Virus record (IMG/VR): IMGVR_UViG_3300031867_000021
Location: 43,603-107,602 of that record
Direction: 5' to 3' (one strand)
DNA length: 64,000 bases
From: a virus
Taxonomy: Duplodnaviria; Caudoviricetes
In this document: positions 17,764-35,558 of the stretch, piece by piece
How the letters are laid out: every line of letters begins with the position of its first letter
How positions within the stretch are numbered: the first letter of the stretch is position 1
Translations under genes and position numbers: made by a program
The notes under the pieces: generated by a model
Told to the model about the DNA's origin: nothing
Seen by the model: only the letters and a program-made list of their open reading frames with translations
Database searches by the model: none

Positions 17764-19173
17764 TTACTTCTTGTAATTCGCATTGCGGGCAGCCATGATC
17801 CGCTTGCCCAGATCGGCTTCAGCCTTCCGCTGAGCAGCAGCCTTGTCAGAAGCCTTCTTGCGCTGCTTCAGGGCCAGATAATCATTCCGCTTGGCCTTAG
17901 CGGTCATGCCGCAGCTCTTCCGAATGGAAGCGGCAGCAGCATCGGCAGCAGCCTTGCGCTCGGAGGGAGGCAGCTTGGCAATCAGAGGTTTCACCGCCTT
18001 GACGGCAGCACGCATCGCATCACGGGCACGCTTGTCGGTCACGGGGGCGGTTTTGTTCTCGGCCGCCAGAGCCTCTTCCTCGTCCTCATCCTCTTCGTTG
18101 ATTTCTTCGGGATCAACGAAATGGGATTCGGGCTCTTCGGGATCCTCGTCGGGAGCAACCAGCTCTTCCTCGTCGGGATCGGCTTCCTCGTCGGCGTCGG
18201 TTTCGGCCTCTTCGGTCTTTTCCTCGCCCTCGGCCAGTTCGTCCTCCAGCTTCTGCAGAGGATCCTCTTCTGGAGCTTCGTCCAGCAGCTGCTTCGCCAC
18301 CAGCTTCTCCAGCAGACTGATCACCTTGTCCAGCTTGTCCTCATCCACAGCGGGCTTCGCGGCGGGATCCTGAGCTTCCTCTTCATCCTCATCCTCATCC
18401 TCTTCGGTAGCCGCCTTCTGGGTGGGCATCTTCTGCAGCAGATCGGTGATGGTGTCCAGCTTCTCGGTCACTTCCGCGTCCATCGCCTTCGGCTCTTCCT
18501 TCTCGGGCTCAGAAACGATCTCATCAATCGCCTCTACCGCCTCGGCAACTTCTTCGGGCTCAGCGTCCTTCGCAAAGGAAGCCAGCATCTTAGCCAGGAT
18601 TCCATGTTTGTTCTTGCGCATTCTGTGATTTCTCCTTTCGTTGTTTGGGGCAGAGTCTTTTATGCAAACGCGGTGACCGGCTCGCCCTTTGTCCACAATG
18701 GCGATATGGTTACCACGGATTTGCCGTTGAACCAGCTTTCCGTCTTCCTCGCAAAGCTCGTAGTTGTATCCGCAGGAAATCTCCCGCTTTCCGTCCAGAA
18801 CCTTCTGGATGGTGTCAGGGTCGGTGATGAACAGATCGGCAATCAGCATGTTCTTTTCATCCCCGGTTCCCCGGTGAACATTCTGCACATGCCCGCGAGA
18901 AAGCCATTTGGCATTCTCGGCGGTTACACCCTCATCACCGTCCGGGTGGTCATCCGTGACCGGCAGTCCCTCGAATGAGGCCATCGTCGTTTCAGAGAAA
19001 ACCTCTTCCTCCGGGCGATATACGGTGACCATCTCGTCCCCGTCCTGATCCACCTCTTCCGGCAGATACTTTTGCGTTCCTGACCGCGCAATCGGAACAT
19101 TCACGCAGATGAGATAGCCTTCCGGCTCTCGCTTGCGGATGTTGTCAGATATCCGAGTCGCGTAGTACAGCAT
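17764..19173 (-). CDS. DUF2213 prohead protease fused to acidic scaffold; internal scaffold start at 18621
   Basis: PEGYLICVNVPIARSG, PVTDDHP, EISCGY, NHIAIVDKGRAG; internal AAGGAG RBS plus in-frame ATG (MRKNKHG). Confidence 0.9.
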   Translation of the reverse strand: MLYYATRISDNIRKREPEGYLICVNVPIARSGTQKYLPEEVDQDGDEMVTVYRPEEEVFSETTMASFEGLPVTDDHPDGDEGVTAENAKWLSRGHVQNVHRGTGDEKNMLIADLFITDPDTIQKVLDGKREISCGYNYELCEEDGKLVQRQIRGNHIAIVDKGRAGHRVCIKDSAPNNERRNHRMRKNKHGILAKMLASFAKDAEPEEVAEAVEAIDEIVSEPEKEEPKAMDAEVTEKLDTITDLLQKMPTQKAATEEDEDEDEEEAQDPAAKPAVDEDKLDKVISLLEKLVAKQLLDEAPEEDPLQKLEDELAEGEEKTEEAETDADEEADPDEEELVAPDEDPEEPESHFVDPEEINEEDEDEEEALAAENKTAPVTDKRARDAMRAAVKAVKPLIAKLPPSERKAAADAAAASIRKSCGMTAKAKRNDYLALKQRKKASDKAAAQRKAEADLGKRIMAARNANYKK

Positions 19174-19198
19174 TTGCATCACCTTCCTTTCTGGCCAC

Positions 19199-19236
19199 AA
19201 TAAAAGCGCGCCGGTTAAATTCCGGTGCGCTTTATT
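19199..19236. terminator. Bidirectional terminator closing the effector array
   Basis: aataaaagcgcgccgg-ttaaatt-ccggtgcgctttatt. Confidence 0.7.
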
Positions 19237-19967: not shown

Positions 19968-20010
19968 CGATTCCGCCCTCCTCTCCGGGCCCTCTTCCGG
20001 GCCCATATAC

Positions 20011-20039
20011 ATTATAACCTATTTTATAATTCCTGTCAC
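20011..20039 (-). promoter_or_regulatory. Promoter for immunity plus hydrolase genes
   Basis: GTGACA-17 bp-TATAAT on minus strand. Confidence 0.65.
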
Positions 20040-20047
20040 CTGCTTTT

Positions 20048-21652
20048 TCAGGGGAAATTCTTAATTCTTTCAATGTTTCTGGGCCTTTTTAAACCTGACA
20101 TATTATTATACATAATATTGCCAAGCTCGTCCTTCCGCTTCTGTGCCGTTTCCGGCTTTCTCTGCTCTTCGTACTGAGGATGCTGCACTTCCTTGCCGAC
20201 CAAGCTCTCCGGCGTATGGAACTGAAGCTCGAATCTCGTGCCGGTCGGTGATTCGAATACGCAGTTAACACCACGATAAGCTTTTTTGATGGAATAACTG
20301 TCCCACGTATTCTTGACTTTTACGGTTTTGTACCCCTTGGCTTCGAGCGCCTTTTGAGTCTTCTCGAAATGCTCCACCAGATTGTCAGTCGTACATGCCT
20401 GCGTGTAACGAACCAGATCGCTCAGATTGTCCGCAGCTTCTTCGTATGTCGGATAAGTTCCATCCGCCCTTCTTTCGGACATTGTTTCAGCGATCTTATC
20501 CGCCACACGGCAACCGCCATCGCTGCTGTCGGAAGCTTTCTTCAGCCGATATTCAAGTCCGAACATTTCAGTGCCAAGATCATCGGCAATATCACACAGA
20601 TCATTTGTGATTTTCGGCTCGTTGGCAAGATCCTTTTTGTATTTTTCAACGGCGTAAGGTTTCAGCTTGGATGAGATATTTCCCAGGAACTTTTTGGTCA
20701 ATGCCTTGCTTTCGGCTTCGGTCGGCCGCCCGGCCTGCGGTTTGCTCATGATTCCTTCATATCTCTCATAGATTTCGCGTTCCTCAGAGCCGGCAGGCCA
20801 CTGCTTCGCTTTTTCCTTGCACATCACGGACGCTTCACGACACGCACTGGCAACTTTATCAAGATTCTGCTTTGCGGCCTTGCTCAGCTTGCGCGGCGTC
20901 TCGGAACCAGTTCTCTGCGGATCGTAGGCCACTGAAGCCGGTTCCTTCATTGTTTCGGCATTCTTGGTTTTGGTTCCTTTTTCAAGCAGCCACGGGCCGT
21001 CGTGCTGCTCGACAAGCAGGTCACTGCTGATTCCGTTCTGTTTTGCGAACTTTTCGATGATCTTGCTTTCGCTGTACGTCTTTGAATAAGGCATCGTAAC
21101 AGATTCGCGCCCAGGAGCGGATATTGTGCAATACGGCTTTGACCTGCCAGACTTTCCGCGGCTTTCCCAATTGAGCCGGATCTTCGCTTCCTCTACATCA
21201 AAATTGGAAACATCCGGCTTCGTGCCACCCCATCTGCCATACCAATTTTCTGGAACACCGGTTTTTGTCGGCTTTGAACTTTTTCCGTTTCCCACGAAAA
21301 AAGTGGTGTAATTTCCAAACTCACTCTTGGCCGGTTTCACTGCAGCAGGCTTTGCGGCCGCTTTCGCCGCTCTTCTCGCAGCAGTCTGGGCTTTTCCTTC
21401 GGCCTTGACCTCGCCCATGGTCTTGCCCTTCATGTTGGAGGGTCCTTTGTCGATCTTTCCCTTGGTTCCTCCACCGCCGCCTTCGGAAAAATGAACCTTG
21501 GTTCCGCCCTCCAGCGTCCGCCAGCCGCTGTCCTCGTCATCTTTGGCGATTTTCTGCATGCAGGCATCGGCTTCCATCAGGCTTTCGATTTCCTCAGCTT
21601 TCAGCGAATCCAGGGCTTTCATTTTAGCCACGAGCTTCAGCAGTTTTCCCAT
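20048..21652 (-). CDS. Tagged effector 5: C-terminal RelA/SpoT-family alarmone synthetase (Apk2-like toxSAS)
   Basis: RLK...SDLVRYT...KVKNTW...YRGVN...FELQFHT; divergent N-terminal tag DDEDSGWRTLEGGTKVHF...GKIDKG. Confidence 0.85.
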   Translation of the reverse strand: MGKLLKLVAKMKALDSLKAEEIESLMEADACMQKIAKDDEDSGWRTLEGGTKVHFSEGGGGGTKGKIDKGPSNMKGKTMGEVKAEGKAQTAARRAAKAAAKPAAVKPAKSEFGNYTTFFVGNGKSSKPTKTGVPENWYGRWGGTKPDVSNFDVEEAKIRLNWESRGKSGRSKPYCTISAPGRESVTMPYSKTYSESKIIEKFAKQNGISSDLLVEQHDGPWLLEKGTKTKNAETMKEPASVAYDPQRTGSETPRKLSKAAKQNLDKVASACREASVMCKEKAKQWPAGSEEREIYERYEGIMSKPQAGRPTEAESKALTKKFLGNISSKLKPYAVEKYKKDLANEPKITNDLCDIADDLGTEMFGLEYRLKKASDSSDGGCRVADKIAETMSERRADGTYPTYEEAADNLSDLVRYTQACTTDNLVEHFEKTQKALEAKGYKTVKVKNTWDSYSIKKAYRGVNCVFESPTGTRFELQFHTPESLVGKEVQHPQYEEQRKPETAQKRKDELGNIMYNNMSGLKRPRNIERIKNFP

Positions 21653-22348: not shown

Positions 22349-24730
22349 TTAAGTCCAGGACAGACGTATCTCCGGGAACTGAACATTCATTCCGTTAAGC
22401 TCGGAATTGTCGTTCCGATTTACCGGAGCTTGTGCTTTATCCAGAATTTTATCGCAATATTCGAGATTTGGCAACGCGTTGTCTATGCGAAGAAGCTTTG
22501 GCCTCCAGTTTCCTCCAGTCTCGGAATTAAGAGAGATTCTATCTAAGTATTTCTCAATCTCTTCCCCTCTGTGTTCCACAGCCATCTTCGTCGGATTTGG
22601 CTGAGGATCGAACAGGACAAGCTCATCTCCACGCTTTTCGGCAATAATGACATGAGCACCAGCTCTGCGGCCTTTCCAGCAGAATGAGAATGTGAACATC
22701 TGCCCCGGCTTTATACTGTCATTCAGCCATTCTTTGGCACTCTTTGCGTTTAGTTTCTTTTCTGGAACAACATATTCAGGCATCTCACCGGTATCTGGAT
22801 CCATCCACGCGACAGCCTGATTGGCCGCGATTGCGAGCTGGGTTTGATCTGCATCTCCAGCTCTCAATTTGGCACTTACATCATAACCGCGTCGTCTTAA
22901 TGCATACGCAATTACGCAAGTCTGACAATTTCCTCTTTGCTTCTTTGTGGCCACATCCCTAAGCGGATTGGCTTTCCCCTGATCCGCTTCTTCATGAGAC
23001 ATATCTCCGCTTGCTCTTCTTGCAACCCCTGCCACCTCTCTCGGATGATACATCTCCTCAATTTCTTCGGGAGTATGAGTCTCATGCCATGCCTCAATCA
23101 GGTTTCTTCTGGCTTCCGCATGCATTTGACGCTCTTCTTCAGCTCGGGCTTTTTCGGCGGCTTTTTTCTGCTTTTCGAGTTCTTTTGCTTCTTTATTTTT
23201 TTGCTCCTGAGCTTCCGCGCTGCTTGGCTCTGCACCAACCATCATTTTTTCCTGCAACAAAATATAATCGCGAAGCGGTTTCTGAGCGTCCTTTCCGCGA
23301 ATCAGGTTTCCATTGAGGCTTTGCATGATATCTTCCGCAGCATAAAAGTGATCATGAGTGAGCTCGGAAACGCTTGAAGGCTTCTGAAGCATGGCATAAT
23401 CGCGATTCCACAAATAAGCGTTCCTGCTTCTGCGGCCTATATCAATATACTTATTGACTGTATCCAGCAAAAGCTCTTTTTCCTGGTCTGTGAGCCTGTC
23501 AAGCTCTTCCTGCCTGACAGGCCCTCCCATCATCGACCCGGCATCGCCATAGATCCTGCTTCTGAGCTGCCAGACAGCCCTCATTCCGTAATAGCTGAGT
23601 TCGTTCGGATTCATCTTGTCGTAGGCAACCTTGTCGATGAAATCCTGATTCAGCTTGGCAAACTTCTCTGCTGTATACGCAGATGTATTCTCTGGCTGCC
23701 TTCCAAGCGCACTGGAAAGATAGCTTTCCATCATGCCGCGTCTGGTCGGCTGATACCAGCTGTAATCTCCGTTTTTCGGAGTTTCAGGAGCAACAGGCTC
23801 CGGCGGCGGCGCTGGCCGTTCCTTAGCTCCGGCATTGTACAATATTTCATCTGGAACTTCGTTTCCTGAAGTCGGACAATTCAGCGCCTTGGCCTTTATG
23901 TCCATCCAGACAAAAGCATCATCTTTCTCCCATCTGGTGAACCCTTCTCCGTCATCTGGAACTTCAGAGCCGTTCGCCTCAATCATGCCATATTTGTTTT
24001 TCAGATAATCGACAACCTTCTTGTCGGAATCCGAAAGCTTTTCATCCATGTACTCCTTGGCATTTTCCGGCCACCCACGCCCTTCGGCTATGAAGTCGGT
24101 AAGCTCTTTTCGTTTTTCGAGCGGCTGGCACTTCATGACGAAGTCTTCCGGGGTCATATCTTCCGTGAACTTCTCGAGCCCGGAATCCCGCAGCACATCG
24201 TCACGCTCTGTGGCGGTCAGCATTCCACTTGTCCACAGTTTATTCAGCCTGTTCACAACTTCCTTGCTGTGGTTCATGTCTCTTTTAATGTCGCCGATCG
24301 CCTTTACCGCTTCGATCTGCCGTTCCCCGGAAAGGTTCTGAAGCCAGTCCTTTTTCTTCGCTCCGGAAGCCCCACCGGAACCGGAAGAACCGCCAGAAGA
24401 ACTCCACGGGCTGCCAGACGTACCGCCCGAGCCCGGTAGAGCAACCTTCGGATGCTTCGGCCGCATAGGTTCTCCACTCTTTTTGACGCCCCAGGATTCT
24501 CCGATCCGCTTCCCATTGAATCTTCCGCCGAATCCAGCCTTGATCTCCCCTGTAGAAGTCTCAAGCCGGAAATGCTTTCCCTCTTCAGAAGTCCGCCAAA
24601 CCTCTTCGTCGCTGGCAACCTCTTCAATGGCTTCCGCATCCAGTCCAAGCAATTTGAGGGCGAAAGGCAGATACTCACTCTTCGGATTAGCCTCTGCAAA
24701 ACCCAGGAACATCTTTCCGATTGCACTCAC
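22349..24730 (-). CDS. Tagged effector 4: C-terminal papain-fold (glutamine deamidase-like) toxin domain
   Basis: NCQTCVIAYALRRRGYDV...GAHV...FDPQ Cys-His-Asp triad; tag WRTSEEGKHFRLETSTGEIKAGFGGRFNG; GGAGGTG RBS plus GTG at 24730. Confidence 0.8.
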   Translation of the reverse strand: MSAIGKMFLGFAEANPKSEYLPFALKLLGLDAEAIEEVASDEEVWRTSEEGKHFRLETSTGEIKAGFGGRFNGKRIGESWGVKKSGEPMRPKHPKVALPGSGGTSGSPWSSSGGSSGSGGASGAKKKDWLQNLSGERQIEAVKAIGDIKRDMNHSKEVVNRLNKLWTSGMLTATERDDVLRDSGLEKFTEDMTPEDFVMKCQPLEKRKELTDFIAEGRGWPENAKEYMDEKLSDSDKKVVDYLKNKYGMIEANGSEVPDDGEGFTRWEKDDAFVWMDIKAKALNCPTSGNEVPDEILYNAGAKERPAPPPEPVAPETPKNGDYSWYQPTRRGMMESYLSSALGRQPENTSAYTAEKFAKLNQDFIDKVAYDKMNPNELSYYGMRAVWQLRSRIYGDAGSMMGGPVRQEELDRLTDQEKELLLDTVNKYIDIGRRSRNAYLWNRDYAMLQKPSSVSELTHDHFYAAEDIMQSLNGNLIRGKDAQKPLRDYILLQEKMMVGAEPSSAEAQEQKNKEAKELEKQKKAAEKARAEEERQMHAEARRNLIEAWHETHTPEEIEEMYHPREVAGVARRASGDMSHEEADQGKANPLRDVATKKQRGNCQTCVIAYALRRRGYDVSAKLRAGDADQTQLAIAANQAVAWMDPDTGEMPEYVVPEKKLNAKSAKEWLNDSIKPGQMFTFSFCWKGRRAGAHVIIAEKRGDELVLFDPQPNPTKMAVEHRGEEIEKYLDRISLNSETGGNWRPKLLRIDNALPNLEYCDKILDKAQAPVNRNDNSELNGMNVQFPEIRLSWT

Positions 24731-24751
24731 TGCTTTCACCTCCGTTTTGCC

Positions 24752-24783
24752 ATAAGAAAAGCCCGGCACTCTCGTGTCGAGCT
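24752..24783 (-). terminator. Cassette-boundary terminator copy 2
   Basis: ataagaaaagcccggcac-tctc-gtgtcgagct. Confidence 0.6.
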
Positions 24784-24801: not shown

Positions 24802-25017
24802 TTAAGCGTTTTTCTCTATCCAGTCTTTTGCAGCATCTGGAACTTCAACATTTTGGTCTTCAACATAGTCCATATATGGATCAAAACGAAGAAACTGGTT
24901 CGGTGCAACACCGAAGCCACCAAATGTTTTTCCGTTCCCGTAATAATATCTTCCATCTGGCAATGATACAAGCACTACGCCACGGTCGTCTTTGTAGAGC
25001 ACCTTTAATCCTTCCAT
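24802..25017 (-). CDS. Candidate immunity protein for effector 3
   Basis: 71 aa; start overlaps the effector 3' end. Confidence 0.55.
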   Translation of the reverse strand: MEGLKVLYKDDRGVVLVSLPDGRYYYGNGKTFGGFGVAPNQFLRFDPYMDYVEDQNVEVPDAAKDWIEKNA

Positions 25018-27188
25018 CTGATTTCGACCCCCCGTTGCTTTGCTAAACTCTCAATTTGTGCCCTGTCTTGGGAATTCTTGGGAATTTCTAAATATTCGAT
25101 ATCAGATGTTTGGATTCCTCCGTGAAACTGCAACTCTACATAATCCGTTGCGGTTTTTCCACTCTGGGCTATTTCGCTAAAAGTCCTTTCTGTGCGCTCA
25201 AGAACCTCTTTTGGTAGGCTTGCTCCAGAAAACGGATTCATTCCAAGAGAGTATATCTTTGGATCCGTCACAAGTGTTGGGACTTGCGAATTTCCAAGCT
25301 GCTTCTGCTGCAGGCTATCCCCAACGGTGAATGTCGTCCGGGTTTTTACATTGTCTTTTTTAAAGACTATTCTACAGTCGCCGTACATCTTGGCGCGTTC
25401 TGCGTGATCAAGAAAACCATATAGCTCATATTGATCATCGCCGATTTCGAGAGCATCCCCGCCATTGAAGAGATCCACGGCCAACGATTTCCGCATTTGA
25501 ATATCTTTGTGCCCATTCGATTCTCCGGTTTCAATCTGTGACTTCATTCTCCCATCTTGAAGGATCCCTAAAATGGCATTCGACTTTGTTCTGGCAGAAA
25601 AATCATGCTTATCCAGGGCATCCTTCAGGATTCGCTCATACTCCGGCGTCCGCTTTGAGTATGTATCGATTGCTGCTGCCTGTTCAGGGCTCGTTGAGGA
25701 ATATCCTCGTTTCACTTCATCGATATAATTATCATACGATTCTTTGTAAATGGGCATCAGCTCATCGTAAGCCTTCATCGTTGGAGTTTCCCGATAGCTT
25801 GGAGCCGTAACAGCAGTTTCACTGGCGCTTGCACTTTCTGTTCCCGCCGATTCATTTTGGCTTTCAGTCTCAGATTCCAACTTTGGCTGCTCTGCCTGCG
25901 TCTCTTTTTTCCCTTTGGAATTTTCCGGCGTGAAAGTATACTCAAACCCATACTCAGCGGCATGCTGCTTATAAAACTCATGGAACGGCTCGGTTTCCAG
26001 CCTTCGGATCTCGTCTTTCCGCTCCTGCGCAGCCTTTTTAGAAAGCTCATCATAACCAGATTTATCGAAATATGCCTGCAGGATCTCATTTGAGGCTCCG
26101 GCGTCCTTCATCTTGACCCATGTTTGAGCAATTTCTTCAAGCTTTCGGCGAGTTTCGTTCCCCTTCAGGTTTGCATCTGCTTGTTTCATCAGATCCAGGA
26201 CTGAAACCTCGGCGGGAACGGCTTTCTCCAAAGCATCCCTCATCCCGAGCCATCCACCGTTCACTTCTCCCCTGCCATACCTCTGATTCCTCAGCGTATA
26301 AGTCCCTTCAGGCGTGCTGACACGAATTTCAGTCGCTCCGTAGCCGAAATCATCCAGATCGTCATAGGAGAATGTCCCTCCGGCCGGATGATTGTGAAGC
26401 GAAATCGCTCCCGGCAGATGTTCTCGATTGGTTCCAACCGTCATGCCGACAGAATGCTTATCGCCCTTGGCCTGCGCCCTGATTTCACCATCTGGGCCAA
26501 CGATGAAAGACTGCTCGTTCTTGAGATTGGCGATCCTCTTTTCAATCTTCCTGAGCGCCTTGTCCTGCTGCGGGGTATTAGTGGGAAAAGGCTTTGCGTC
26601 CTGATGCTCTTCATCCCACAAACCGCGCTTTTTAAGCTCTTCCCGGCAAGCTTCCATCTTGGCCTGCGTCTCCGCCATCGAATCAAGATAGCTCTTTCTC
26701 ACGCCAGCATATTCCTGCTTTTTGGTCTCAGGAAAGGTTTCGTATTCCTTCAGAAATTTTTTGGCCTTTTGCAGGTCTTCGTTGTGTCTTCCGAACGCTC
26801 TGCCAACACCCGTATCTCCAAAGCCTTGAACCTTTTGCCGCAATGATTCCACGTTAGCTTTCTGACTTTCGGTCAGCGCCGGAGCCTTCGGCGTTTCCAC
26901 GGTTTTTGGAGCCGCTGCAGCCTGTTTTCTGCCGGCGGCGCTATTTTTGAAGACTGAACCAAGCTTTTCACCGTTGAACTTTCCACCGAACCCGGCTTTA
27001 ATCTCTCCGGTCGTGGTTTCCAACTTAAAATGGCGCCCCTCTTCTGAAGTGCGCCATACTTCCTCGTCGGCAGTTGTTTCTTTTTGACTATTGGCATCAA
27101 AGCCAAGCATTTTTAAGGCAAGATGTAGCGATGCGGTTCTGGGGCTTGTCTTTGAATACTCATAAAACAATCGTCCAATGGTTTTCAT
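25005..27188 (-). CDS. Tagged effector 3: JAB/MPN-like domain plus C-terminal DUF3626-like (putative ADP-ribosyltransferase fold) domain
   Basis: EQSF...HNHPAGGTFSYDD JAMM-like motif; KSQIETG..YG..TTFTVGDS..YVELQFHGG; tag WRTSEEGRHFKLETTTGEIKAGFGGKFNG. Confidence 0.7.
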   Translation of the reverse strand: MKTIGRLFYEYSKTSPRTASLHLALKMLGFDANSQKETTADEEVWRTSEEGRHFKLETTTGEIKAGFGGKFNGEKLGSVFKNSAAGRKQAAAAPKTVETPKAPALTESQKANVESLRQKVQGFGDTGVGRAFGRHNEDLQKAKKFLKEYETFPETKKQEYAGVRKSYLDSMAETQAKMEACREELKKRGLWDEEHQDAKPFPTNTPQQDKALRKIEKRIANLKNEQSFIVGPDGEIRAQAKGDKHSVGMTVGTNREHLPGAISLHNHPAGGTFSYDDLDDFGYGATEIRVSTPEGTYTLRNQRYGRGEVNGGWLGMRDALEKAVPAEVSVLDLMKQADANLKGNETRRKLEEIAQTWVKMKDAGASNEILQAYFDKSGYDELSKKAAQERKDEIRRLETEPFHEFYKQHAAEYGFEYTFTPENSKGKKETQAEQPKLESETESQNESAGTESASASETAVTAPSYRETPTMKAYDELMPIYKESYDNYIDEVKRGYSSTSPEQAAAIDTYSKRTPEYERILKDALDKHDFSARTKSNAILGILQDGRMKSQIETGESNGHKDIQMRKSLAVDLFNGGDALEIGDDQYELYGFLDHAERAKMYGDCRIVFKKDNVKTRTTFTVGDSLQQKQLGNSQVPTLVTDPKIYSLGMNPFSGASLPKEVLERTERTFSEIAQSGKTATDYVELQFHGGIQTSDIEYLEIPKNSQDRAQIESLAKQRGVEIRWKD

Positions 27189-27213
27189 CGTTATCACCTC
27201 CCCACAAAAACGC

Positions 27214-27242
27214 TTTACGCAATTTTGTCTATGTGCTATACT
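27214..27242 (+). promoter_or_regulatory. Antisense-oriented promoter
   Basis: TTTACG-17-TATACT with extended -10 TG. Confidence 0.6.
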
Positions 27243-27244
27243 TT

Positions 27245-27353
27245 AGGCATCAAGGGGAAACCCTGCAGGCCGTAACAGGCCCCCGACCAAACGGCACGGT
27301 CGAGGGAACGAGTTACGGCTGAAGCTGACGCCATGCCTCTTGCCAAGGATGGC
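27245..27353 (+). ncRNA. Candidate structured small RNA downstream of the CdiA-like nuclease gene
   Basis: Nested stems aggcat/atgcct, ggg-gaaa-ccc, ggccgtaac/gttacggct, cgacc/ggtcg directly after a promoter. Confidence 0.5.
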
Positions 27354-28919
27354 TCAGCGTGAAAGCTCCGATTGTTTCGGAGCTTTTCTTGCTTTATATT
27401 CAAGGCATTTATATGCCCCGTCTTTGTCGATTATTAAAACGCTCAAGTCCTGTTTTGAGCGTTTCGTGAGAGCCTTTTCGATTTTATTTTCTGCTTCTTC
27501 GATAGTGGCGCCACACGCACTTATATCAAAAATCAAGCCTCTGCTGTTTGGGGCAATTTGATTTAAGCCACTCCGAATCCTCAAGTCGAACGCATTTTGT
27601 GAATTGCTTTCCGGCGTTTTCAGATCCCAAAGTCCACCGCGCCAGAAATAATCAGGGTTGCTTTCATCTCTCAAAAAGTTTTCAGACAGAACAATCAAAT
27701 TCCCGCCGAATAGCTGATGCAATCTTTTCCCCATTTTTATCTCTGCGGCACTATGTTTTTTATCAACCCTGGTCATAACATAGAATGCGCCGGAACCTGG
27801 TTCTGCTTCCTTCTCGAACTCTTCCGTTTTGTCTCTTATTTGTTTTTCGGCTTTTGTGCCAGATTCTTTTCCCTGAGTATCGTATGTGGTTTCCGTCTCC
27901 CGCATGGTTGCATCAGCCGGCGCAACCTGCCGGCCTATAATCGCGACTGGAATAGTCTCGACCCCGTTCATCATGGCAGCCAGAGCCCTGTGCCGACCTT
28001 CCTGATTTTCTGTCGCATAGTCCAGATAAGGAATCGGGAATTTCTCCCCGTTTTCCATCAGATCGGCGTATTTATTGACCTTATAGGCTTCGGTTCCCGC
28101 AACAGTGTTTTCCAAGGTGCTGTTCGTGAAAATCTCGAAAGCGCATCTTTCCAGATATTCTTTCGGGCTCATCTCGACAACCTTGGCGCTTCCGTTCTTC
28201 AATTTTTCCCGCAGAGCCGGAACATCCGATTCCAGCGTGAAGCCCTCGAAATCTTTCCTTGTCGTTTCCTTAAGCTCCGGGTTGCCCCACTCGGCGATTT
28301 CATCAGAACGCTTCTGACGCTTCAGCTCATCCATTTTCCCGCCGTACTCTTCGGCCTCCTGCCCGGCCTTCTGAGACTCAGCAAAGCAGTCATCATATTC
28401 CTTCTTGAGCTGTTTGCCCTTCTCGGTATACCAGCCGAAGAGCCCGGCATATTGCGGCCCCATTGACTTCGCGTCGTCATCCGGGTACTCGATTTCATTC
28501 TTCAGCTCTCTGCTGATTTCCAGGAACCTCTTTGAGGCAGCGTCTTTCCTCTTCGTGGCATCAGCCCACTTGGTTCTTGCCGCTTCAAAATCCGGGTCAT
28601 TGATGAGGTTCTTCTCTCCCACGACAGAGGAAATCATTTTCGCTGTGCTTTCAGGCCGGATCCTCTTCGGCTTAGCTGCAGCTGGTTTCTTCGCAGACTG
28701 GCCGCCGCTGAAAGCTTCCTTCAGCGTCTCGCCGTTGTGCTTCCCTCCAAAACCAGCCTTGATCTCACCGGTACCAGATTCGAGCTTTATATGATGGCCT
28801 TCCTCGGTTGTTCTCCAGACTTCTGCATCATGTCCGAAAAGCTTCACCAGGAACTGAAGGGCCTTGTTCTTCCCTTCCCTATGCGCATAGGCTTTGTACA
28901 GCTCAGCTCTGATTCCCAT
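27354..28919 (-). CDS. Tagged effector 2: ParB/Srx-like domain plus C-terminal CdiA_C-like PD-(D/E)xK tRNase domain
   Basis: QEGRHRALAA; NPDYFWRGGLWDLKTP...IRSGLNQ; tag WRTTEEGHHIKLESGTGEIKAGFGGKHNG. Confidence 0.72.
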   Translation of the reverse strand: MGIRAELYKAYAHREGKNKALQFLVKLFGHDAEVWRTTEEGHHIKLESGTGEIKAGFGGKHNGETLKEAFSGGQSAKKPAAAKPKRIRPESTAKMISSVVGEKNLINDPDFEAARTKWADATKRKDAASKRFLEISRELKNEIEYPDDDAKSMGPQYAGLFGWYTEKGKQLKKEYDDCFAESQKAGQEAEEYGGKMDELKRQKRSDEIAEWGNPELKETTRKDFEGFTLESDVPALREKLKNGSAKVVEMSPKEYLERCAFEIFTNSTLENTVAGTEAYKVNKYADLMENGEKFPIPYLDYATENQEGRHRALAAMMNGVETIPVAIIGRQVAPADATMRETETTYDTQGKESGTKAEKQIRDKTEEFEKEAEPGSGAFYVMTRVDKKHSAAEIKMGKRLHQLFGGNLIVLSENFLRDESNPDYFWRGGLWDLKTPESNSQNAFDLRIRSGLNQIAPNSRGLIFDISACGATIEEAENKIEKALTKRSKQDLSVLIIDKDGAYKCLEYKARKAPKQSELSR

Positions 28920-28932
28920 GCGCATCACCCCT

Positions 28933-29772
28933 TTACGAAATCTTCCCGAACTTCTTTTTAATCTGGTTCTTCGTCCAGTAACCTACTTTTCCGTGATAAT
29001 GCAGCCTGACCGAATCCGGCAGGTTCCTGATATCAACAACCGGCTCCTGATAGCACCGGCAGTTGAAGGTATTTCCCGCGTGATACCGTCCATAAGAACT
29101 CTGACCCGCACCCGGAAACAGAGCTTCAGGGTTTGGCGGATCATCATAGAACACGAGAATTCCATCCATTGAGCCGTGGGAATGTCTCGTGCGCTCATCA
29201 TGGCAGGAATGCCAGATATAAGCCTTGATTCCAAGGTTCTCGGCTCTGGCCTGCGTGAGTGCCGCATTTGCTTTGCCGCACTCTGTCCGCGCGATGCACT
29301 TCAGATTTCTGGCAATCTTCTCCGGCATGATCTTCCGAAGCTCTTCCTCAATCTCTTCCGGCCGCCGGCCCTTCTGCGTCTCCCGCTCGGTGTAGGCGGT
29401 TATATAAGCGGCCCATTCCATCGGGACTGTCTTGATGTACTTTGAGTTTTCGGCAATCAGCTCTTCAACCCGCCTGCCGACAGGCCCTTTCATCTCTTCC
29501 ATCAGGGCTTTGTACATCTCCCGGCCGTAGGTGTTGCGGAGAACGGCTTCCCGCCAGGAATGAACAGACTCATCTCTCTCCCGCTTGACCATGTTTCCGA
29601 CAACCTCATCCACCCGCTGCCCAAGGGTCAGCCGATGAACCCACTCTTTCATCTTCTGGGTAACGTTGCCTGAATTGATGGCCCCGGATCTTGTCTGCTG
29701 CGAGATCCCGGAAAAGATTTTGCACAGGTTCTTCCAGAATGATCGTTCCGTCGAACGTTTCACGGCAATCAT
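28933..29772 (-). CDS. MuF/SPP1 gp7-like minor head protein without toxin extension
   Basis: IARTE, YIWHSCHDERTRHSH, HAGNTFNCRCY. Confidence 0.9.
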   Translation of the reverse strand: MIAVKRSTERSFWKNLCKIFSGISQQTRSGAINSGNVTQKMKEWVHRLTLGQRVDEVVGNMVKRERDESVHSWREAVLRNTYGREMYKALMEEMKGPVGRRVEELIAENSKYIKTVPMEWAAYITAYTERETQKGRRPEEIEEELRKIMPEKIARNLKCIARTECGKANAALTQARAENLGIKAYIWHSCHDERTRHSHGSMDGILVFYDDPPNPEALFPGAGQSSYGRYHAGNTFNCRCYQEPVVDIRNLPDSVRLHYHGKVGYWTKNQIKKKFGKIS

Positions 29773-30067
29773 CTTTCATCACCTGCCATCTGAAGGTAAA
29801 ATTAAGCGGCTGGCGGCATCGACGGAATGCCGCCATTTAAGCGAATCTATATTCAGGAGGGAAATCCGGAATGAAGAAAAGGAGATTACTTCATGAAAAA
29901 GAAGAGTGAGGGGATTCCGTCTATCGCACCGCTTTGAGATCCGGACAGGCGAACCGGACTCGCGGACGTCCGGCCACCACCCCTTTCGTCCGCTTCCCCC
30001 GCTAACGCATCAGAACCCTCCAGCTGGAGGCCCTTCTGGAGGAAACGGATTGGGGCTGTTTTAAGGT

Positions 30068-30100
30068 ATAAGAAAAGCCCGGCGGCAATCCGTCAGGCTT
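30068..30100 (-). terminator. Cassette-boundary terminator copy 3
   Basis: ataagaaaagcccggcgg-caat-ccgtcaggctt. Confidence 0.6.
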
Positions 30101-30126
30101 CTCCCTGGAACTCTATTTATACTTTT

Positions 30127-30358
30127 TAAGCGGGTGAGGATTTGCACCTCACATGATCCATTCGTTATTGCTCTATAGTGCCAACTTAAGGTTTGTTTTG
30201 CTCTTCAGCTTGCCGCCCTTGCCTCTTTTAGTTTATAAAACTATACCAGTCTCATTGGTTCTGGAAGGTCTTATCAGTTGGATCACATCACGCAACTCCA
30301 TGCAGGGAGCGACCCTTGAATGTCTTTACACTACGTCTACCTGTTCCGCCACCGCTCA
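30127..30358 (-). ncRNA. tRNA-like RNA (acceptor, D and T arms) with a large insert in place of anticodon/variable arms
   Basis: 5' TGAGCGG TG GCGGAACAGGTAGACG ... GTGAGG TGCAAAT CCTCAC CCGCTTA 3'. Confidence 0.6.
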
Positions 30359-30375
30359 ATAAAGTATTATTGAAT

Positions 30376-30607
30376 TTAAAGAAGCATGTCCACCGATGAA
30401 CATGCTTTTTCGACCGGGTCAAATAATTCTCCCCGGCTCTGGCATAGCTTTTCAACCCTGCACAGGTCTTCGTAGCCGCTTCGGCCTATTGCAAGATCGA
30501 ACTCCCTGCGGAGTTCTTCCAAACTCATATTGCGCCCGCAGCCGAATTCATCCTGATACTTATGAACCACTTCATCCCTGAACTCTGCGTATGATTTCGT
30601 GGCTCAT
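30376..30607 (-). pseudogene. Possible frameshifted paralog of the upstream candidate immunity gene
   Basis: RBS-linked ATG at 30607 is one base out of frame with the ORF ATKSYAEFRDEVVHKY...KACSSVDMLL. Confidence 0.35.
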
Positions 30608-30632
30608 CACCCCCCCCATGACCGGCAGCCGC

Positions 30633-30878
30633 TTATTCGAAACACATCTCAAGGCAATAAGAAGTGCTGGCCACGCAGGCTTTATAGAAGGCTTCGTCGC
30701 TCAGATCATCATCTTTTCCCTTGCCTTCTTCGTAGCCTTTATATCGCCCATCGATCGTTTCCATCTCTGAGTTGATATAAGCTTCAAAATCCTCTTCGGA
30801 CAGGTCATAACAGGCAAGCGCTTTTTTCAGATCGGCCTTTACATCATTGACGAACTGGTCTCGACTGATTTTTCCCAC
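30633..30878 (-). CDS. Candidate immunity protein for the portal-fused domain
   Basis: 81 aa, acidic, 3 bp after the portal stop, GGAGG RBS. Confidence 0.55.
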   Translation of the reverse strand: MGKISRDQFVNDVKADLKKALACYDLSEEDFEAYINSEMETIDGRYKGYEEGKGKDDDLSDEAFYKACVASTSYCLEMCFE

Positions 30879-30881
30879 CGC

Positions 30882-33800
30882 TTACACCTCCATGCTGTCG
30901 TCCCGAATCTTTTTCGCCTTGGAATAATCTTCCTCAGGTTTGTGAGAAGCCACATATTCATCACAGTTCTTTCCGTGCGCTTTCCATATTTCTTCCCTGC
31001 TGCGCCCGGTATACTTGAAGAATACAACCGGCTCTTTCTGGTCTCTGGTTCTGTCCCAATCCGGCGGCCTTATCCCTTCGATATCAGCAAACTCGCAATA
31101 GCTTGTCGGCTCGAATCCGTTCTTTGTGTAAAACTCGTACAAACCGCCAAACGCATCAAGTTTATTTCCGCCCTTCATTCTTGCGAACTCAAGGAGCTGA
31201 CTTCCTGTGACTCCACGATCTCCGGGATGTTTGCACACGCTCACGATATCGCCATCGTGAACCGCAACAGCAGAACCGCCCTTTGTCGTGAAGCACTGCA
31301 TTTTCGCATAATCCTCCACGGAATAGGTTCCATCCACACGCCAGGATTTATCTGGCTGCACGTCCTGCACCGCTTTCTTTGCCGCATGGAAAGTATCGTA
31401 AAACTTCTGCGGCTCAGTTTGCTGGAAATTATCCGGGTTCAGCGGGGCTTTCGTTCGTCCGCTCCCGGTTCCACTTCCATTATACGCCGAATTATTCTGA
31501 TTTACAATACTTTCGGACGTATTTTCTCCACCCGCATTATACTGCGTTTCCGGCTCTCTGGCAACGGGCGCCATCGGAACGTTTTCGCCCCAGAACATGG
31601 ACTGCTGTCCAGGAACCTCCACCCGTTTCTCGACTCCCGCATACTTTTCAAGCAGATCGTCCGAGAAGTTCGTTTCAATCTCCGCGCCCAGGAGCTTTGC
31701 CTGGAGCTGAATTCTGGCGATTACCGCTTCCGGGTGATCGCTTTCCCATTTTTCTTCCTGAGCGAACGGGACATCACTGTACTCTTCAGTGATGTTTGCC
31801 AGAATGTCCTGTTCTCTCGGAGTCAGACGCTCTGCCCACTGGGCAGGTACTGACTTAAGCCCGAACTCATTCGTAGCTCGAATTTCACCATTTCTGGCCT
31901 GATTCCATTCATCGGAATACTGAACTGAATTGGCCAGATTGTTGAGCGCATTATCCGCTTCGTCCAGATCAACAGCAGGATTCTCAAGAACCTTTTTGGC
32001 ATTTTTTCGGGCATTTTCATAATCCCGAAGCTCCGTCTTTATGGTTGCTGCCTTTTTCTCGCTTCCATCTGAATACTTGCTGAAACTTACGGGAATATCC
32101 GGCATCTTTGCCTTGGGAGGCGTGACCTTCGGCGGAGCGGCGACCTTTGTCCCCTTCGCTCTGGCCTTGGATCCGCTGCCGGATCCCCACTGCTCACCAA
32201 GCTTCTTACCATTGAACTTGCCGCCGAAACCAGCTTTGATTTCGCCGGTTGAAGTTTCCAGCTTGAAGTGCCGGCCTTCCTCGCTCGTCCTCCACGCTTC
32301 AGCATCAATGCTGAACAGATTCTGAACAAACTTGGCCGTCTGCTCCCGGCTGTGGTCGGCAGCGTACTGCTTAATCAGCCTGACCCTCTGGTCCGAAAAA
32401 CCGGAATAATCCGGCTTATCCCGACCGATGAGAGACTTGACCTTTTTGCGCACCCAATCAATGACCCCACTGTTGGGCTCTTTGCCCTCTCTGGCCTCTT
32501 CGGGCTTTCGGGCGGGAGTTTGGTCATTCTCCTGCTCTGCCTGCTCTTTGGGCTCATTCTGGGCTTCCGCAGGCACGCTCTTCTGCGTGGCCTTCGGCTC
32601 CTCTTCCGGCTTCTCCGCTGGCTCGGCTTCAGGTTTTGAGACTGGCTTCTGTTCCGGCTTCATTTCCGGTTTTTCCGGCCTTTCCTCCGGCTTTACTTCC
32701 GGCTTTTCCTCCGTGGCTTCAGGCTTCTCTTCCTCTGGCCCTTCTTCAGGCGGCATCATACCGCCCATGGCGGCCATCGGATCCATTCCTCCGCCGGGAC
32801 CACCATCTGGCCCCTCAGGTCCTTCAGGACCGCCCGGCCCCATGCCGCCCATCATGCCGCCCATGGGGTCGCCCATGCCTTCGCCTTGATCAACCTCGGT
32901 TTCGGCGCTTTCAACAATTTCATCCGTAATGGATCCCCATGCGCCGACATCCTTGCCGCTCTTCTGCAGTTCTATCAGAGCGGTCTGCTGCGAGATCAAC
33001 CCGGCAGAGAACGCATTAATCACGGTTCCGGTCACCTGCGAGATAATATTCGCCCTTTCGGAAGGCGTAGTCACCTGCAGAGGCTCGAACACGACATGCA
33101 TGCCATCCGGGATCTTCCCCCAAAGACTCATGCACATGACCGGCAGCAGCTTCTCAATCGCCGGGCGCAGGTTGCGCTCCTGCAGCTGAGCCAGCATTTC
33201 ATAATAGTTCTTCATGTCCGATTCTCCGGTGGCATTCATGCCCTGCGGAGAACGTCCATACAGCTTGGTCGCCGGAATTTCGGCGGCACCTGCCATATCC
33301 ATCATGAAGGACTCATAGATTTCAGACAGACCGGAGAAGGAATAGGGATGCTGTTCGTACCCGTCCTGCGATCCCATGATCATCATGCCGAAAGAATTCC
33401 GGTAACGGTTTTCTTCCTCAATGCTCTCAATGATCGCCTGCTTCTGCTTCTCCGTGCCCATGCCCATGATTTCACCAAAATCGGCCATTTTAAGCACGCC
33501 GACATTGGCCTGAAACACGAGCTGAGCAATATTCGCGCTGGTCGCATTTCTCTTCTGAAGCTCTTCATAAACGTGCTCCAGCTCAGATGCTCCCCAGTAG
33601 CTTTCCGAAACCTCTTCCATGATCGGAAGCATCCGTCCCCGGAACATCAGGAGCCGGGAATGATGAATCCGCATGGTCTGGTTTGTCTCGTTATTCAGCC
33701 GGACTGTGTAATATTTCGGATATCCGAACTCGATATCGTCCATATCCTCTTCCAGCTCAACAGAAGGATCCAGTCCGCTCGTCCGATCTACGACAATCAG

Positions 33801-34292
33801 GCCCCGGAAGCAACCCGGCACCAGATCGTCATAATCCAGCGGTTCATCCAGCATATCCTCCTGCCCCTTGATCACGATCACGGCAGCAGCACCGCCATAA
33901 AGCCTCGCCCAGCGCAGCGCATTGGTGATTTCCTGCTTCACGCTGTGCTTGGATTCCAGCTCAGCCAGCTCATCCAGCTTATCCTGATCAAGATTGGAGG
34001 AAATCGTATACCAGGAGCGGGTCATATCTTCACAGGGGGTGTCAATAATCCGCTTCGCGATCCAGTTTTCACGGTAAGCCACGGTCAGCGTCTCGTAATC
34101 CCGGCTGATATAATTCCGCTCGAAATCGTTCGCCTGACTTAGTAATGAAGCTTCACCGAGATAGGCCAACCTGTTAATGAACCCGTCATTGGCAGACAGG
34201 ATTTTCAGAGGCAACGCGCCACGCTTGGTCGCATCCGCGCCCTGATTCTGAATCTGTCTCGCACGAATGTTGCGTCTTTTTTTGCTCGACAT
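30882..34292 (-). CDS. Portal protein (DUF1073-like) fused to low-complexity linker, shared tag and GNAT-like domain (effector 1)
   Basis: WIAKRIIDTP, WARLYGG, IHHSRL, AGAAEIPATKLYGRSPQGMNATGESD; internal WRTSEEGRHFKLETSTGEIKAGFGGKFNG; C-terminal GDIVSVC..GSQLL..GGNKLDAF..LYEFYTKNGF. Confidence 0.88.
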   Translation of the reverse strand: MSSKKRRNIRARQIQNQGADATKRGALPLKILSANDGFINRLAYLGEASLLSQANDFERNYISRDYETLTVAYRENWIAKRIIDTPCEDMTRSWYTISSNLDQDKLDELAELESKHSVKQEITNALRWARLYGGAAAVIVIKGQEDMLDEPLDYDDLVPGCFRGLIVVDRTSGLDPSVELEEDMDDIEFGYPKYYTVRLNNETNQTMRIHHSRLLMFRGRMLPIMEEVSESYWGASELEHVYEELQKRNATSANIAQLVFQANVGVLKMADFGEIMGMGTEKQKQAIIESIEEENRYRNSFGMMIMGSQDGYEQHPYSFSGLSEIYESFMMDMAGAAEIPATKLYGRSPQGMNATGESDMKNYYEMLAQLQERNLRPAIEKLLPVMCMSLWGKIPDGMHVVFEPLQVTTPSERANIISQVTGTVINAFSAGLISQQTALIELQKSGKDVGAWGSITDEIVESAETEVDQGEGMGDPMGGMMGGMGPGGPEGPEGPDGGPGGGMDPMAAMGGMMPPEEGPEEEKPEATEEKPEVKPEERPEKPEMKPEQKPVSKPEAEPAEKPEEEPKATQKSVPAEAQNEPKEQAEQENDQTPARKPEEAREGKEPNSGVIDWVRKKVKSLIGRDKPDYSGFSDQRVRLIKQYAADHSREQTAKFVQNLFSIDAEAWRTSEEGRHFKLETSTGEIKAGFGGKFNGKKLGEQWGSGSGSKARAKGTKVAAPPKVTPPKAKMPDIPVSFSKYSDGSEKKAATIKTELRDYENARKNAKKVLENPAVDLDEADNALNNLANSVQYSDEWNQARNGEIRATNEFGLKSVPAQWAERLTPREQDILANITEEYSDVPFAQEEKWESDHPEAVIARIQLQAKLLGAEIETNFSDDLLEKYAGVEKRVEVPGQQSMFWGENVPMAPVAREPETQYNAGGENTSESIVNQNNSAYNGSGTGSGRTKAPLNPDNFQQTEPQKFYDTFHAAKKAVQDVQPDKSWRVDGTYSVEDYAKMQCFTTKGGSAVAVHDGDIVSVCKHPGDRGVTGSQLLEFARMKGGNKLDAFGGLYEFYTKNGFEPTSYCEFADIEGIRPPDWDRTRDQKEPVVFFKYTGRSREEIWKAHGKNCDEYVASHKPEEDYSKAKKIRDDSMEV
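31479..31564 (-). promoter_or_regulatory. Two tandem internal promoters in the portal extension
   Basis: TTGCCA-17-TATAAT (31564-31536) and TTGTAA-17-TATAAT (31507-31479). Confidence 0.55.
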
Positions 34293-34310: not shown

Positions 34311-35558
34311 TTACTTGAAATATCCTGCCTTATCCACCAACCGGGCACAACAGGCCGCCGAGTCCGGCGCGTCATCATGCTCCGCATCCTCGGTATAATC
34401 CAGAATCTGCGCCAGATATTCCGGGTCGGTTCCATCCAGCCATTTGATATTCGGCCACCATTTCCGCAGGTAGCTCGAAATCTTCACGTACTTATTGTCG
34501 GACTCATGATATCCATGGGGATATCTCTCTCTCCGGCGAATTTCCTTTCTCAGGAAACCCTTATCGGAGTTATCCTCCACGTGAATCGGGTAACATCTGA
34601 GCCGGTCGCATTCCGCAATGATCGCATCCAGCACGGTGTCCACATGCTTCTGCCAGAGCCGGCCATACATATAAACCGTATCGCCAACTCTTCTGGCACA
34701 GGTCAGCGCTGTGTAGTCCTCGCCGCCGTAGGCCGCATCCACATGGGCAAAGCCATCGAACAGATTCTGCTCATCCTTGAAGAACTCCGGTGACTGAGTG
34801 AACAGAGCGTTCTCGGAAGCGATATGCCGCAGCTCGTAGTTCGCCGCAAACAGAGAAGGGGTCATGTCCCGGCGGAGCTGAGCGATTTTCTCTTCCGTCA
34901 GCATCCCCGTCCGGCGATAATCCCAAATCTCCGGCTTCGGCATGATCGTGAAGGCATCTTCCTTATGCCAGGGCGTTCCGGTATTGATAATCCGGCCGCC
35001 AGGATTCCGCACATTCTGCAGTTCCTGATAAACGGCTTTCGTATGTTCCCGTTCGGCCTTGGAGACTCGGTCTTTCAGGTTGACAATATCGTCCGTGATG
35101 ACGATATCCGCATGCTTACCGGTCAGAGAACCGGAAATACCCATGCCGAGGAGCTGCGAAGCCCCTCTCGGCGCAGAATAGCAGGAAGTCGTGATTTCGT
35201 TCGCGGTCGCCCGCAGGACTACCAGCGGAAATCCGGTCAGAGCCATGTAAATCTGCTGAAAGATATCTGAATTCAGGATCCGGTTCACGTTCTTGATGAC
35301 TTCCGTCACGTCCGTGTCCGTCTTCCTCAAGAAGATGACGTTCCTGTCCCGGTTCCGAATGATAATCAGCGAAATCGCAATGCACAGGCAGGTCGTTTTA
35401 TATGAACCACGGTGCGCCTGCAGCGTGAAATCTTCCTCCCCGGCAACCATATGCCGAATCCATCGGTCATGCATCTCATTCAGGTTGGAATAACCGAGCG
35501 CCTTGCCAAGGGCCATCGGGTGAGCGATAAACCACGCCGCTTTTTCCCTCTGCGTCAC
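34311..35558 (-). CDS. terL: Terminase large subunit
   Basis: HRGSYKT Walker A, IVITDD Walker B, GTPWH, HVDAAYGGEDYTA, HDDAPDS. Confidence 0.92.
   Translation of the reverse strand: MTQREKAAWFIAHPMALGKALGYSNLNEMHDRWIRHMVAGEEDFTLQAHRGSYKTTCLCIAISLIIIRNRDRNVIFLRKTDTDVTEVIKNVNRILNSDIFQQIYMALTGFPLVVLRATANEITTSCYSAPRGASQLLGMGISGSLTGKHADIVITDDIVNLKDRVSKAEREHTKAVYQELQNVRNPGGRIINTGTPWHKEDAFTIMPKPEIWDYRRTGMLTEEKIAQLRRDMTPSLFAANYELRHIASENALFTQSPEFFKDEQNLFDGFAHVDAAYGGEDYTALTCARRVGDTVYMYGRLWQKHVDTVLDAIIAECDRLRCYPIHVEDNSDKGFLRKEIRRRERYPHGYHESDNKYVKISSYLRKWWPNIKWLDGTDPEYLAQILDYTEDAEHDDAPDSAACCARLVDKAGYFK

Follow-up and report, generated by a model that had tools for sequence, protein, structure and literature searches.

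A phage portal protein fused to a header-tagged GNAT-fold domain and followed by a small conserved partner gene

The window analysed here is a 64,000-nucleotide stretch of virus DNA (Duplodnaviria; Caudoviricetes), positions 43,603 to 107,602 of the IMG/VR record IMGVR_UViG_3300031867_000021. It forms the second part of this 107,602-base record, an uncultured phage genome of about 108 kb that CheckV rates as complete. The minus strand of the window exhibits a single uninterrupted frame of 1136 codons (30882..34292, ATG start, 126.6 kDa product), in which a portal protein continues into a long extension. This extension comprises an acidic linker, two leader helices with a header peptide that we call the WRT tag, a basic linker, a helical domain and a C-terminal domain of the GNAT fold. 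A small acidic open reading frame (ORF) of 81 amino acids (aa) follows directly. The architecture and the fold of this portal-effector fusion are near certain. We further propose, with moderate confidence, that the extension is an effector unit on the inner end of the portal, that the small partner silences its enzyme, and that the unit is released and delivered with the DNA. Portal-fused, capsid-carried effectors are a known kind of protein; the tag and the conserved small partner gene are apparently undescribed.

The N-terminal part of the product matches the portal family PF06381 (Phage_portal_3) at aa 69-421 (E-value = 5e-108, 361 bits against a 33.8-bit cutoff), phrog_146 over aa 31-473, and the NCBIfam model TIGR01555 (HI1409 family; 260 bits against a 196-bit cutoff). 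An initial annotation of this DNA had placed the end of the portal domain near aa 470, in agreement with these boundaries, and had described an extension in the same frame. The frame is indeed one ORF of 1136 aa, and every string quoted from it was found in place. The acidic linker opens with GMGDPMGGMMGG at aa 472-483, its opening residues GEGM.DPM being invariant in 12 portals. A KPE-rich stretch lies at about aa 515-600, and the linker exhibits a weak tandem periodicity of 12 nucleotides (nt).

As modelled, the C-terminal domain is a GNAT at the level of the fold and a predicted acyltransferase. The AlphaFold model of aa 955-1136, built from 17 sequences, exhibits a mean predicted local distance difference test score (pLDDT) of 93.7, and its secondary-structure elements follow the order of the GNAT fold (b1-a1-a2-b2-b3-b4-a3-b5-a4-b6-b7). 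A GNAT-like domain had been suspected from short strings (GSQLL at aa 1030, KLDAF at 1044, LYEFYTKNGF at 1051-1060), and a Foldseek comparison of the domain with the PDB now returned GNATs exclusively (E-values from 1.6e-3, probability 0.98-1.0). In an exhaustive structural alignment against 48,161 PDB representatives the top 50 of 50 matches are again GNATs, RimI included, with Z scores of 7.9-10.1, root-mean-square deviations of about 3 Å and about 125 aligned residues; no specific likeness to toxins of the TacT/AtaT/KacT type stood out among these structural matches. The best matches in BFVD are large phage polyvalent proteins (E-value = 4e-10). Within motif B (Y-T-K-N-G-F-E-P) the Tyr, Asn, Gly, Phe, Glu and Pro residues are invariant in the 17 sequences. 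The conserved Tyr of GNAT motif B (Y-x-K-x-G-F) is the general acid in many members of the fold. An invariant Cys stands at the end of b4. The sole sequence-model match of the domain is phrog_2563, whose function is not annotated (E-value = 2e-5); no NCBIfam family was found for it, and a PDB sequence search with the GNAT profile was empty.

Microbacterium phages carry the same GNAT domain at the C-terminal end of their MuF-type minor capsid protein, and it is also found in a MuF-GNAT "minor capsid protein" of vir075, a virus of the archaeon Methanobrevibacter gottschalkii. A further carrier-GNAT gene occurs in Treponema vincentii; its N-terminal half looks MuF-like by eye and matched neither Pfam nor the MuF protein of the window.

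The portal fusion itself recurs in relatives. A search with aa 610-1136 returned 24 further proteins bearing PF06381, 673-1254 aa long, from ENA, JGI, NCBI and Logan assemblies. In pairwise BLAST comparisons with the relatives, the portal core exhibits 52-79% identity and the shared C-terminal domain 37-69%. Two relatives' loci, on a 338-kb Clostridiales contig (L005, with an integrase nearby) and on a 44-kb contig, have the same gene order, and the genome matches of the closest relatives name rumen Clostridiales and Christensenellales metagenome-assembled genomes as hosts. The long frame could in principle be an artefact in which the portal gene and an effector gene behind it were run together by chimeric assembly or by a sequencing frameshift: the window sequence is a single metagenomic contig, and the related protein P0033 resembles an internally deleted or chimeric form. 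However, the same architecture is present in about 24 cluster representatives from different samples, as fusions of 840-1254 aa at the portal identities given above, and each of these has the invariant linker start in frame. An assembly artefact is very unlikely because the fusion recurs in relatives from independent assemblies, and we give this explanation almost no weight. The in-frame fusion is thus real and recurrent.

Three portals (P0005, P0016 and P0024) carry the linker, the tag and the helical domain and end before the GNAT domain; from these, the helical domain may have a role of its own. Fold searches with this domain gave generic helical matches alone (best Z score 5.3; BFVD E-value = 0.07). 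A match of aa 742-810 to P22_gp7 was sub-threshold (17 bits against a 28-bit cutoff) and was set aside. Neither the tag nor the helical domain nor the 81-aa partner was assigned a family in searches of Pfam, NCBIfam and PHROGs.

The WRT...GEIKAGFGGKFNGK tag and its leader occupy aa 626-707, with LFSIDAEAWRTSEEG at aa 659-673 (nt 32318-32274). The leader consists of two helices and is followed by W-R-T-S-E-E-G-R-H-F-K-L-E-T-S-T-G-E-I-K-A-G-F-G-G-K-F-N-G-K. Across eight relatives, six of them portal fusions, 22 of about 40 tag residues are invariant, and no other part of the extension is conserved as strongly. In an AlphaFold model of aa 625-940 with eight relatives, the leader reaches a pLDDT of about 65 and the tag stays below 50, with a weak hairpin between HFKL and GEIK. 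The tag is therefore near-invariant yet predicted to be disordered, as expected of a motif that is read by a partner. The initial annotation had also described the tag as shared. It does head the downstream toxin-type genes, and elsewhere it heads effector domains of the polyvalent type. Within this genome its matches (E-values from 2e-21 to 4e-20) are confined to the head-module array. These copies exhibit 64-94% identity as protein and 61-74% as DNA, and use the same codon at fewer than half of the identical residues. This difference between protein and DNA identity indicates that the tag has been kept by selection and not by recent conversion.

A word-index search with the tag returned 43 clusters, and an exhaustive profile search of 1.84 billion representatives returned 158 clusters at E-value≤0.001, 46 of them at 1e-10. 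Of the 77 best matches, 70 carry the tag at the N-terminus, with its start inside the first 110 residues; the matches away from the N-terminus are portal fusions, a few proteins with at least two headers and some false positives. Pfam domains on the tagged proteins include ADPrib_exo_Tox, Gln_amidase, DUF3626, CdiA_C, InPase and ddrB-ParB, as well as LPD1, LPD3, PBECR3, ART-PolyVal and topoisomerase IB. Domains of this kind are typical of polyvalent proteins and polymorphic toxins. Behind the tag, a stretch of 40 residues is as a rule basic and rich in P, A and K (median net charge +3 in 137 tagged proteins). An identification of the tag as a choline-binding or cell-wall-binding repeat (PF01473, PF19127) was rejected: those repeats form tandem arrays of 20-residue hairpins, whereas there is a single copy per header, and no Pfam match falls in the tag of the tagged phage proteins. 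The tag profile does pick up some true choline-binding repeat proteins (e.g. P0086), probably through analogy of the hairpin. Among the profile matches P0086, P0122, P0129 and P0168, some carry several headers in one protein.

One tagged protein bears directly on the origin of the fusion. P0055 (518 aa) is a free-standing protein with leader, tag, helical domain and GNAT domain (51% identity to aa 633-1034); its gene is not located near a portal gene, and a 78-aa ORF follows it. Its existence in this form suggests that the portal fusion arose when a whole tagged effector gene was joined to a portal gene. The tag is unlikely to be an address alone, because it is best conserved even where the cargo is covalently attached to the portal.

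At the position of the tag most portal-GNAT relatives have a different motif, D-x-W-x-E-S-x-H-P-R-G-K-G-G-K-F-x-x-K-G. The effectors of the sister phage L005 have a leader followed either by this HPRG motif or by G-G-P-G-S-G-N-F-G-H-K-G-R-P-G; in its head module (L005:14176-19794, on the Clostridiales contig) two effectors carry GGPGSGNFGHKGRPGKVGGSG and a zeta-toxin protein carries DAEFVESEHPRGKGGKFVKKG. Since L005 has the same head module with different headers, the header type is swapped between close relatives. The portal of the closest relative (P0002) has the G-P-G-S-G-N motif and the WRT tag together, and P0168 combines one WRT header and two HPRG..GKF motifs. If a hairpin of 14 residues were inserted before G-G-K-F, an HPRG motif would look like the WRT tag; the GGKF..KG half is shared. 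An hhalign comparison of WRT tags with HPRG motifs was not significant (probability 0.5%, 9 columns). On sequence grounds we treat the two headers as positional equivalents whose homology is not proven.

The 81-aa acidic ORF that had been noted behind the portal gene is present there (Table 1). It starts 3 nt past the portal stop, with GGAGG 7 nt upstream of a GTG start, and has an isoelectric point (pI) of 4.3. Of the 10 complete loci examined, 9 have a homologue or look-alike of it immediately downstream of the GNAT, and one also stands behind P0055; no partner-like ORF was found behind the GNAT of L016. The partner accompanies portal fusions (L007, L005/L009) and free-standing GNATs (L008, L010, L012, L013, L015), as well as the T. 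vincentii carrier-GNAT gene and the MuF-GNAT of vir075. In L010 and L012 the GNAT-partner pair lies just ahead of the terminase, an SPP1-type portal and a MuF2-toxin gene. The look-alikes have an N-terminal T-Y-E-E-F...V and a C-terminal S-Y-C-L-E-M-C-F or Y-C-L-x-M-x-Y-E. A match to HTH_60 (E-value = 0.019) was below the cutoff and was set aside, and a protein atlas search with the partner returned nothing. Judged by this recurrent placement, the ORF is a conserved partner of the GNAT. As a small acidic protein that is apparently translationally coupled and co-inherited with the GNAT, it most likely represents an immunity or inhibitor protein and is a candidate for binding to the GNAT.

The fusion gene lies in a head module. 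The terminase large subunit gene (34311..35558) is just upstream of the portal gene and the MuF gene is downstream, an order also found in L005 and L007. Further downstream follow four large genes, a DUF2213 protease/scaffold gene, a cement protein gene and a DUF2184-type capsid protein gene. The DUF2213 protein also matches PHROG families annotated as head maturation protease, and by these matches it is the candidate enzyme for any processing. Small ORFs, an HD hydrolase among them, lie downstream of the neighbouring tagged toxins; the CdiA_C-bearing gene is the only one of the five with no small ORF directly behind it (27214-27354). The effector with the divergent header (534 aa) matches phrog_7625 as well as NF041399, the C-terminal region of XopAD/skwp. 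Behind it lie a 98-aa ORF and a gene for an HD phosphohydrolase (phrog_990, E-value = 1e-49; the three genes span 19272-21652, minus strand). This effector and its phosphohydrolase resemble alarmone-type MuF toxins with a hydrolase as immunity protein. In the 730-aa DUF3626 protein (25005-27197, minus strand) an L-H-N-H-P-A-G-G motif with the look of a JAB/RadC-type metalloprotease lies between the header and DUF3626; the same stretch stands behind the tag in P0027, P0070 and P0085. Between the 81-aa gene and the MuF gene, 860 nt (29773-30632) have no convincing ORF; the corresponding distance is about 760 nt in L007 and about 300 nt in L005. An Rfam scan of 29700-30900 returned no family and one sub-threshold snoRNA match. 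A cytosine-C5 DNA methylase gene (36048-37247, minus strand) is located just upstream of the terminase genes, likewise in L007.

Table 1. Coordinates of the fusion gene, its segments, the partner gene and neighbouring head-module genes in the window.
Feature	Position	Strand	Evidence or remark
Portal-effector fusion gene, whole	30882..34292	-	single ORF; homologous fusions on ~24 independent contigs
Portal domain, aa 1-471	32880..34292	-	PF06381, phrog_146, TIGR01555
Low-complexity acidic linker, aa 472-625	32418..32879	-	G/M/P-rich, then K/P/E-rich; pI 4.5
Leader helices and WRT header tag, aa 626-707	32172..32417	-	common to four downstream genes
Basic P/A/K-rich linker, aa 708-733	32094..32171	-	pI 10.7
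Helical domain, fold family not assigned, aa 734-889	31626..32093	-	pLDDT ~90
Disordered linker, aa 890-954	31431..31625	-	pLDDT <50
Predicted GNAT-fold acyltransferase domain, aa 955-1136	30885..31430	-	AlphaFold pLDDT 93.7, structural matches
81-aa acidic GNAT partner, candidate inhibitor/immunity protein	30633..30878	-	ribosome-binding site inside the portal gene end
MuF / SPP1 gp7-type head protein, untagged, without toxin domain	28933..29772	-	PF04233 E 2e-17; phrog_324
Tagged effector, CdiA_C nuclease-type toxin domain	27354..28928	-	tag aa 33-78; PF18451 E 6e-10
Tagged effector, DUF3626 domain	25005..27197	-	tag aa 43-88; PF12294 E 7e-9
Tagged effector, papain-fold glutamine deamidase toxin domain	22349..24769	-	tag aa 53-98; PF15644 E 2e-8
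Effector, divergent header DSGWRTLEGGTKVHF	20048..21652	-	C-terminus NF041399 E 1e-21
DUF2213 (Pa193 gp24-type) head maturation protease / scaffold	17764..19200	-	PF09979 E 2e-49

Several known systems invite comparison. GNAT toxin-antitoxin systems such as TacT/TacA, AtaT/AtaR and KacT/KacA have an upstream antitoxin of the RHH/DUF1778 type. They resemble the present pair in combining a GNAT-fold enzyme with a small adjacent protein; in contrast, the partner in the window lies downstream and matches no RHH or DUF1778 model. In phage T4, the internal proteins and Alt bear a capsid-targeting sequence that the gp21 prohead protease removes at a defined site, a case also mentioned in PMC5512222. 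The WRT tag resembles this sequence as a short N-terminal peptide common to unrelated proteins, which in T4 are loaded into the prohead and injected. The two have no sequence similarity. With about 45 residues and a leader the WRT tag exceeds the T4 sequence in length, and it is found in internal positions too; the protease is here of the DUF2213 type, and loading and cleavage of the tagged proteins are putative.

Closer in domain content are the polyvalent proteins described by Iyer, Burroughs, Anand, de Souza and Aravind in 2017, in which PBECR, 2H and InPase domains are fused to portal or MuF proteins (PMC5512222). That study includes two GNAT families in polyvalent proteins, lists a RimI-like clade, and predicts packaging and injection of these proteins (PMC5512222). 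As there (PMC5512222), an effector domain is attached to a portal that is incorporated into the head and encoded in the virion module, and the tagged relatives carry the hallmark domains of polyvalent proteins, LPD1, LPD3, ddrB-ParB, PBECR3, ART-PolyVal and InPase. The portal fusions named there are, however, PBECR, 2H and InPase, with no GNAT, and a text search of the study found neither a header peptide nor a conserved small GNAT partner (PMC5512222). The MuF polymorphic toxins of temperate phages have downstream immunity ORFs, and GNATs are not mentioned among them (Jamet et al. 2017, PMC5576092). They share with the fusion described here a variable C-terminal toxin on a head carrier, a small downstream ORF and a location beside the portal gene (PMC5576092), and in other viruses a MuF protein does carry this GNAT. 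Unlike them, the fusion protein has no MuF domain, the MuF protein of the window is short and devoid of a toxin, and the carrier is the portal itself or a header of about 45 residues.

The portals of Pa193 and E217 (gp19) belong to the same portal family, and their solved structures are the basis for a dodecameric ring (PMC11456595). The gene order of portal, MuF, DUF2213 protein, cement protein and DUF2184 capsid protein is also the same. They differ in having about 22% identity in the portal core, and a tail of about 240 residues with an InPase-like domain in place of the WRT tag and the GNAT. An InPase-like tail is seen in Pbunavirus portals. In Pa193 the residues 529-765 of 765, i.e. 237 residues beyond the barrel, have no density in cryo-electron microscopy (PMC11456595). 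Text searches of the literature covered found no description of a portal-GNAT fusion, of the WRT header or of a GNAT-partner cassette, and searches for the motif strings and for a packaging tag on polyvalent proteins returned nothing relevant.

The account that we favour begins with the fusion of a free-standing tagged effector gene to the portal gene, which would have placed a complete cargo unit on the C-terminus of the portal, in the capsid interior. The cargo consists, in this order, of an acidic spring-like linker, the leader helices, the disordered WRT header, a basic linker, the helical domain and the predicted GNAT-fold acyltransferase, and about 12 effector copies per virion would stand at the portal vertex inside the head. 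Between the genes for the portal and the head protease lie those of four further header-tagged proteins of toxin type. The 81-aa protein, whose start is coupled to the portal stop, would keep the GNAT silent in the cell that produces the phage (or is lysogenic for it). At the next infection the DNA and the effector would enter the host together; for this the effector would have to be released from the portal, most plausibly through a cut that the head maturation protease makes within or close to the header or the linkers.

The steps of this account differ in strength. The extension probably lies inside the head: portal architecture and the Pa193 portal tail (PMC11456595) point to an interior location and to about 12 copies. 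Delivery of the effector into the next host we regard as an evenly balanced proposition. That the DUF2213 protease releases it with a cut at the header or close by is possible and on balance doubtful. The initial annotation had proposed cleavage at ID-A; this does not hold as a conserved site, since the residues before the Trp vary (DAEA, DAEV, DEEV, DEDV, EDSG).

A number of points weigh against the favoured account as a whole. We infer the presence of the extension in virions, and its cleavage or ejection. A folded GNAT of 21 kDa tethered to the portal cannot leave uncut, and the copies revealed no conserved site for such a cut. Binding between the partner and the GNAT is putative. The canonical pyrophosphate loop of GNAT motif A, between b4 and a3, reads R/Q-x-x-G-x-G/A; the b4-a3 loop of this domain is non-canonical, with R-G-V-T-G-S in the window and a family consensus of R-G-S at the start of a3. 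The domain also has no Pfam family at E-values up to 1. Because of this loop and the lack of a match to a Pfam GNAT model, the enzymatic activity and its acyl donor are putative. Finally, the portal of Agathobaculum phage AB434P2, the closest cultured relative, has no extension, which implies that the extension is dispensable for portal function.

The chief alternative, which we hold to be unlikely, is that nothing leaves the portal. Twelve arms of linker, helical domain and GNAT would stay in place and form an internal body or plug, with no delivery to a host; they might organise or retain the DNA end or acetylate virion components, and the tag would dock them to another head protein. Such an assembly would agree with the covalent link to the portal, with an acidic linker succeeded by a basic one, and with the retention of the tag in fused copies, where it could be a docking element. 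P0005, P0016 and P0024, which keep portal, tag and helical domain without the GNAT, fit it as well, and so does the Pa193 portal tail, which is retained yet disordered (PMC11456595). A structural role, however, does not need a translationally coupled small partner. The cassette of GNAT and partner, moreover, shifts between carriers (portal, MuF, free-standing) and has classical toxins with immunity-like ORFs as neighbours, which suits an effector and not a structural part.

In another explanation, the GNAT and the 81-aa protein would form a conventional pair, either toxin and antitoxin or an interbacterial toxin with its immunity protein, and act in the producing or lysogenic cell. The pair would serve addiction, abortive infection or the killing of competitors at lysis, the portal fusion would be no more than a means of late co-expression, and the tag would function in secretion or regulation. 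The toxin-like neighbours with small downstream ORFs are in line with this, as are the occurrence of some relatives in prophages and the integrase near the L005 locus; a role of MuF toxins in competition was discussed by Jamet et al. 2017 (PMC5576092). We nevertheless consider it distinctly improbable. The tag and the GNAT are repeatedly attached to proteins that are built into the head (portal, MuF) and encoded in head modules, and the tag is limited to the head-module array of this genome. Known GNAT pairs have an RHH/DUF1778-type antitoxin upstream, whereas no match of this type was found here.

If the favoured account of a portal-borne, partner-silenced and delivered effector is taken further, three claims can be combined, which we put forward tentatively and think somewhat unlikely to stand all together. 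The WRT header may be an undescribed disordered cargo header that is read by the head assembly or maturation machinery, with the HPRG..GKF and GPGSGN headers in the same role. Its strict retention in portal-fused copies might mark it as a release or processing signal rather than an address. The GNAT and its partner of about 80 aa could be a new family of virion-delivered toxin-immunity cassettes, found in bacterial and archaeal viruses.

Proteins packed into the head and injected act before phage gene expression, which makes them prime candidates for anti-defence and host-takeover functions, and they are hard to recognise from sequence. The locus described here links a portal carrier whose place in the virion is known, a strongly selected header present on about 150 clusters, and a portable GNAT-partner cassette that ranges from phages of Clostridia to a methanogen virus. 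If the header is indeed a signal for loading or release, it would provide a sequence rule by which injected effectors could be found, and foreign proteins might be loaded into heads by means of it. The portal fusion would then be a natural test case, as it separates "getting in" from "getting out", and so an address from a release signal. The finding owes its value to the header peptide and to the natural experiment provided by the portal fusion.

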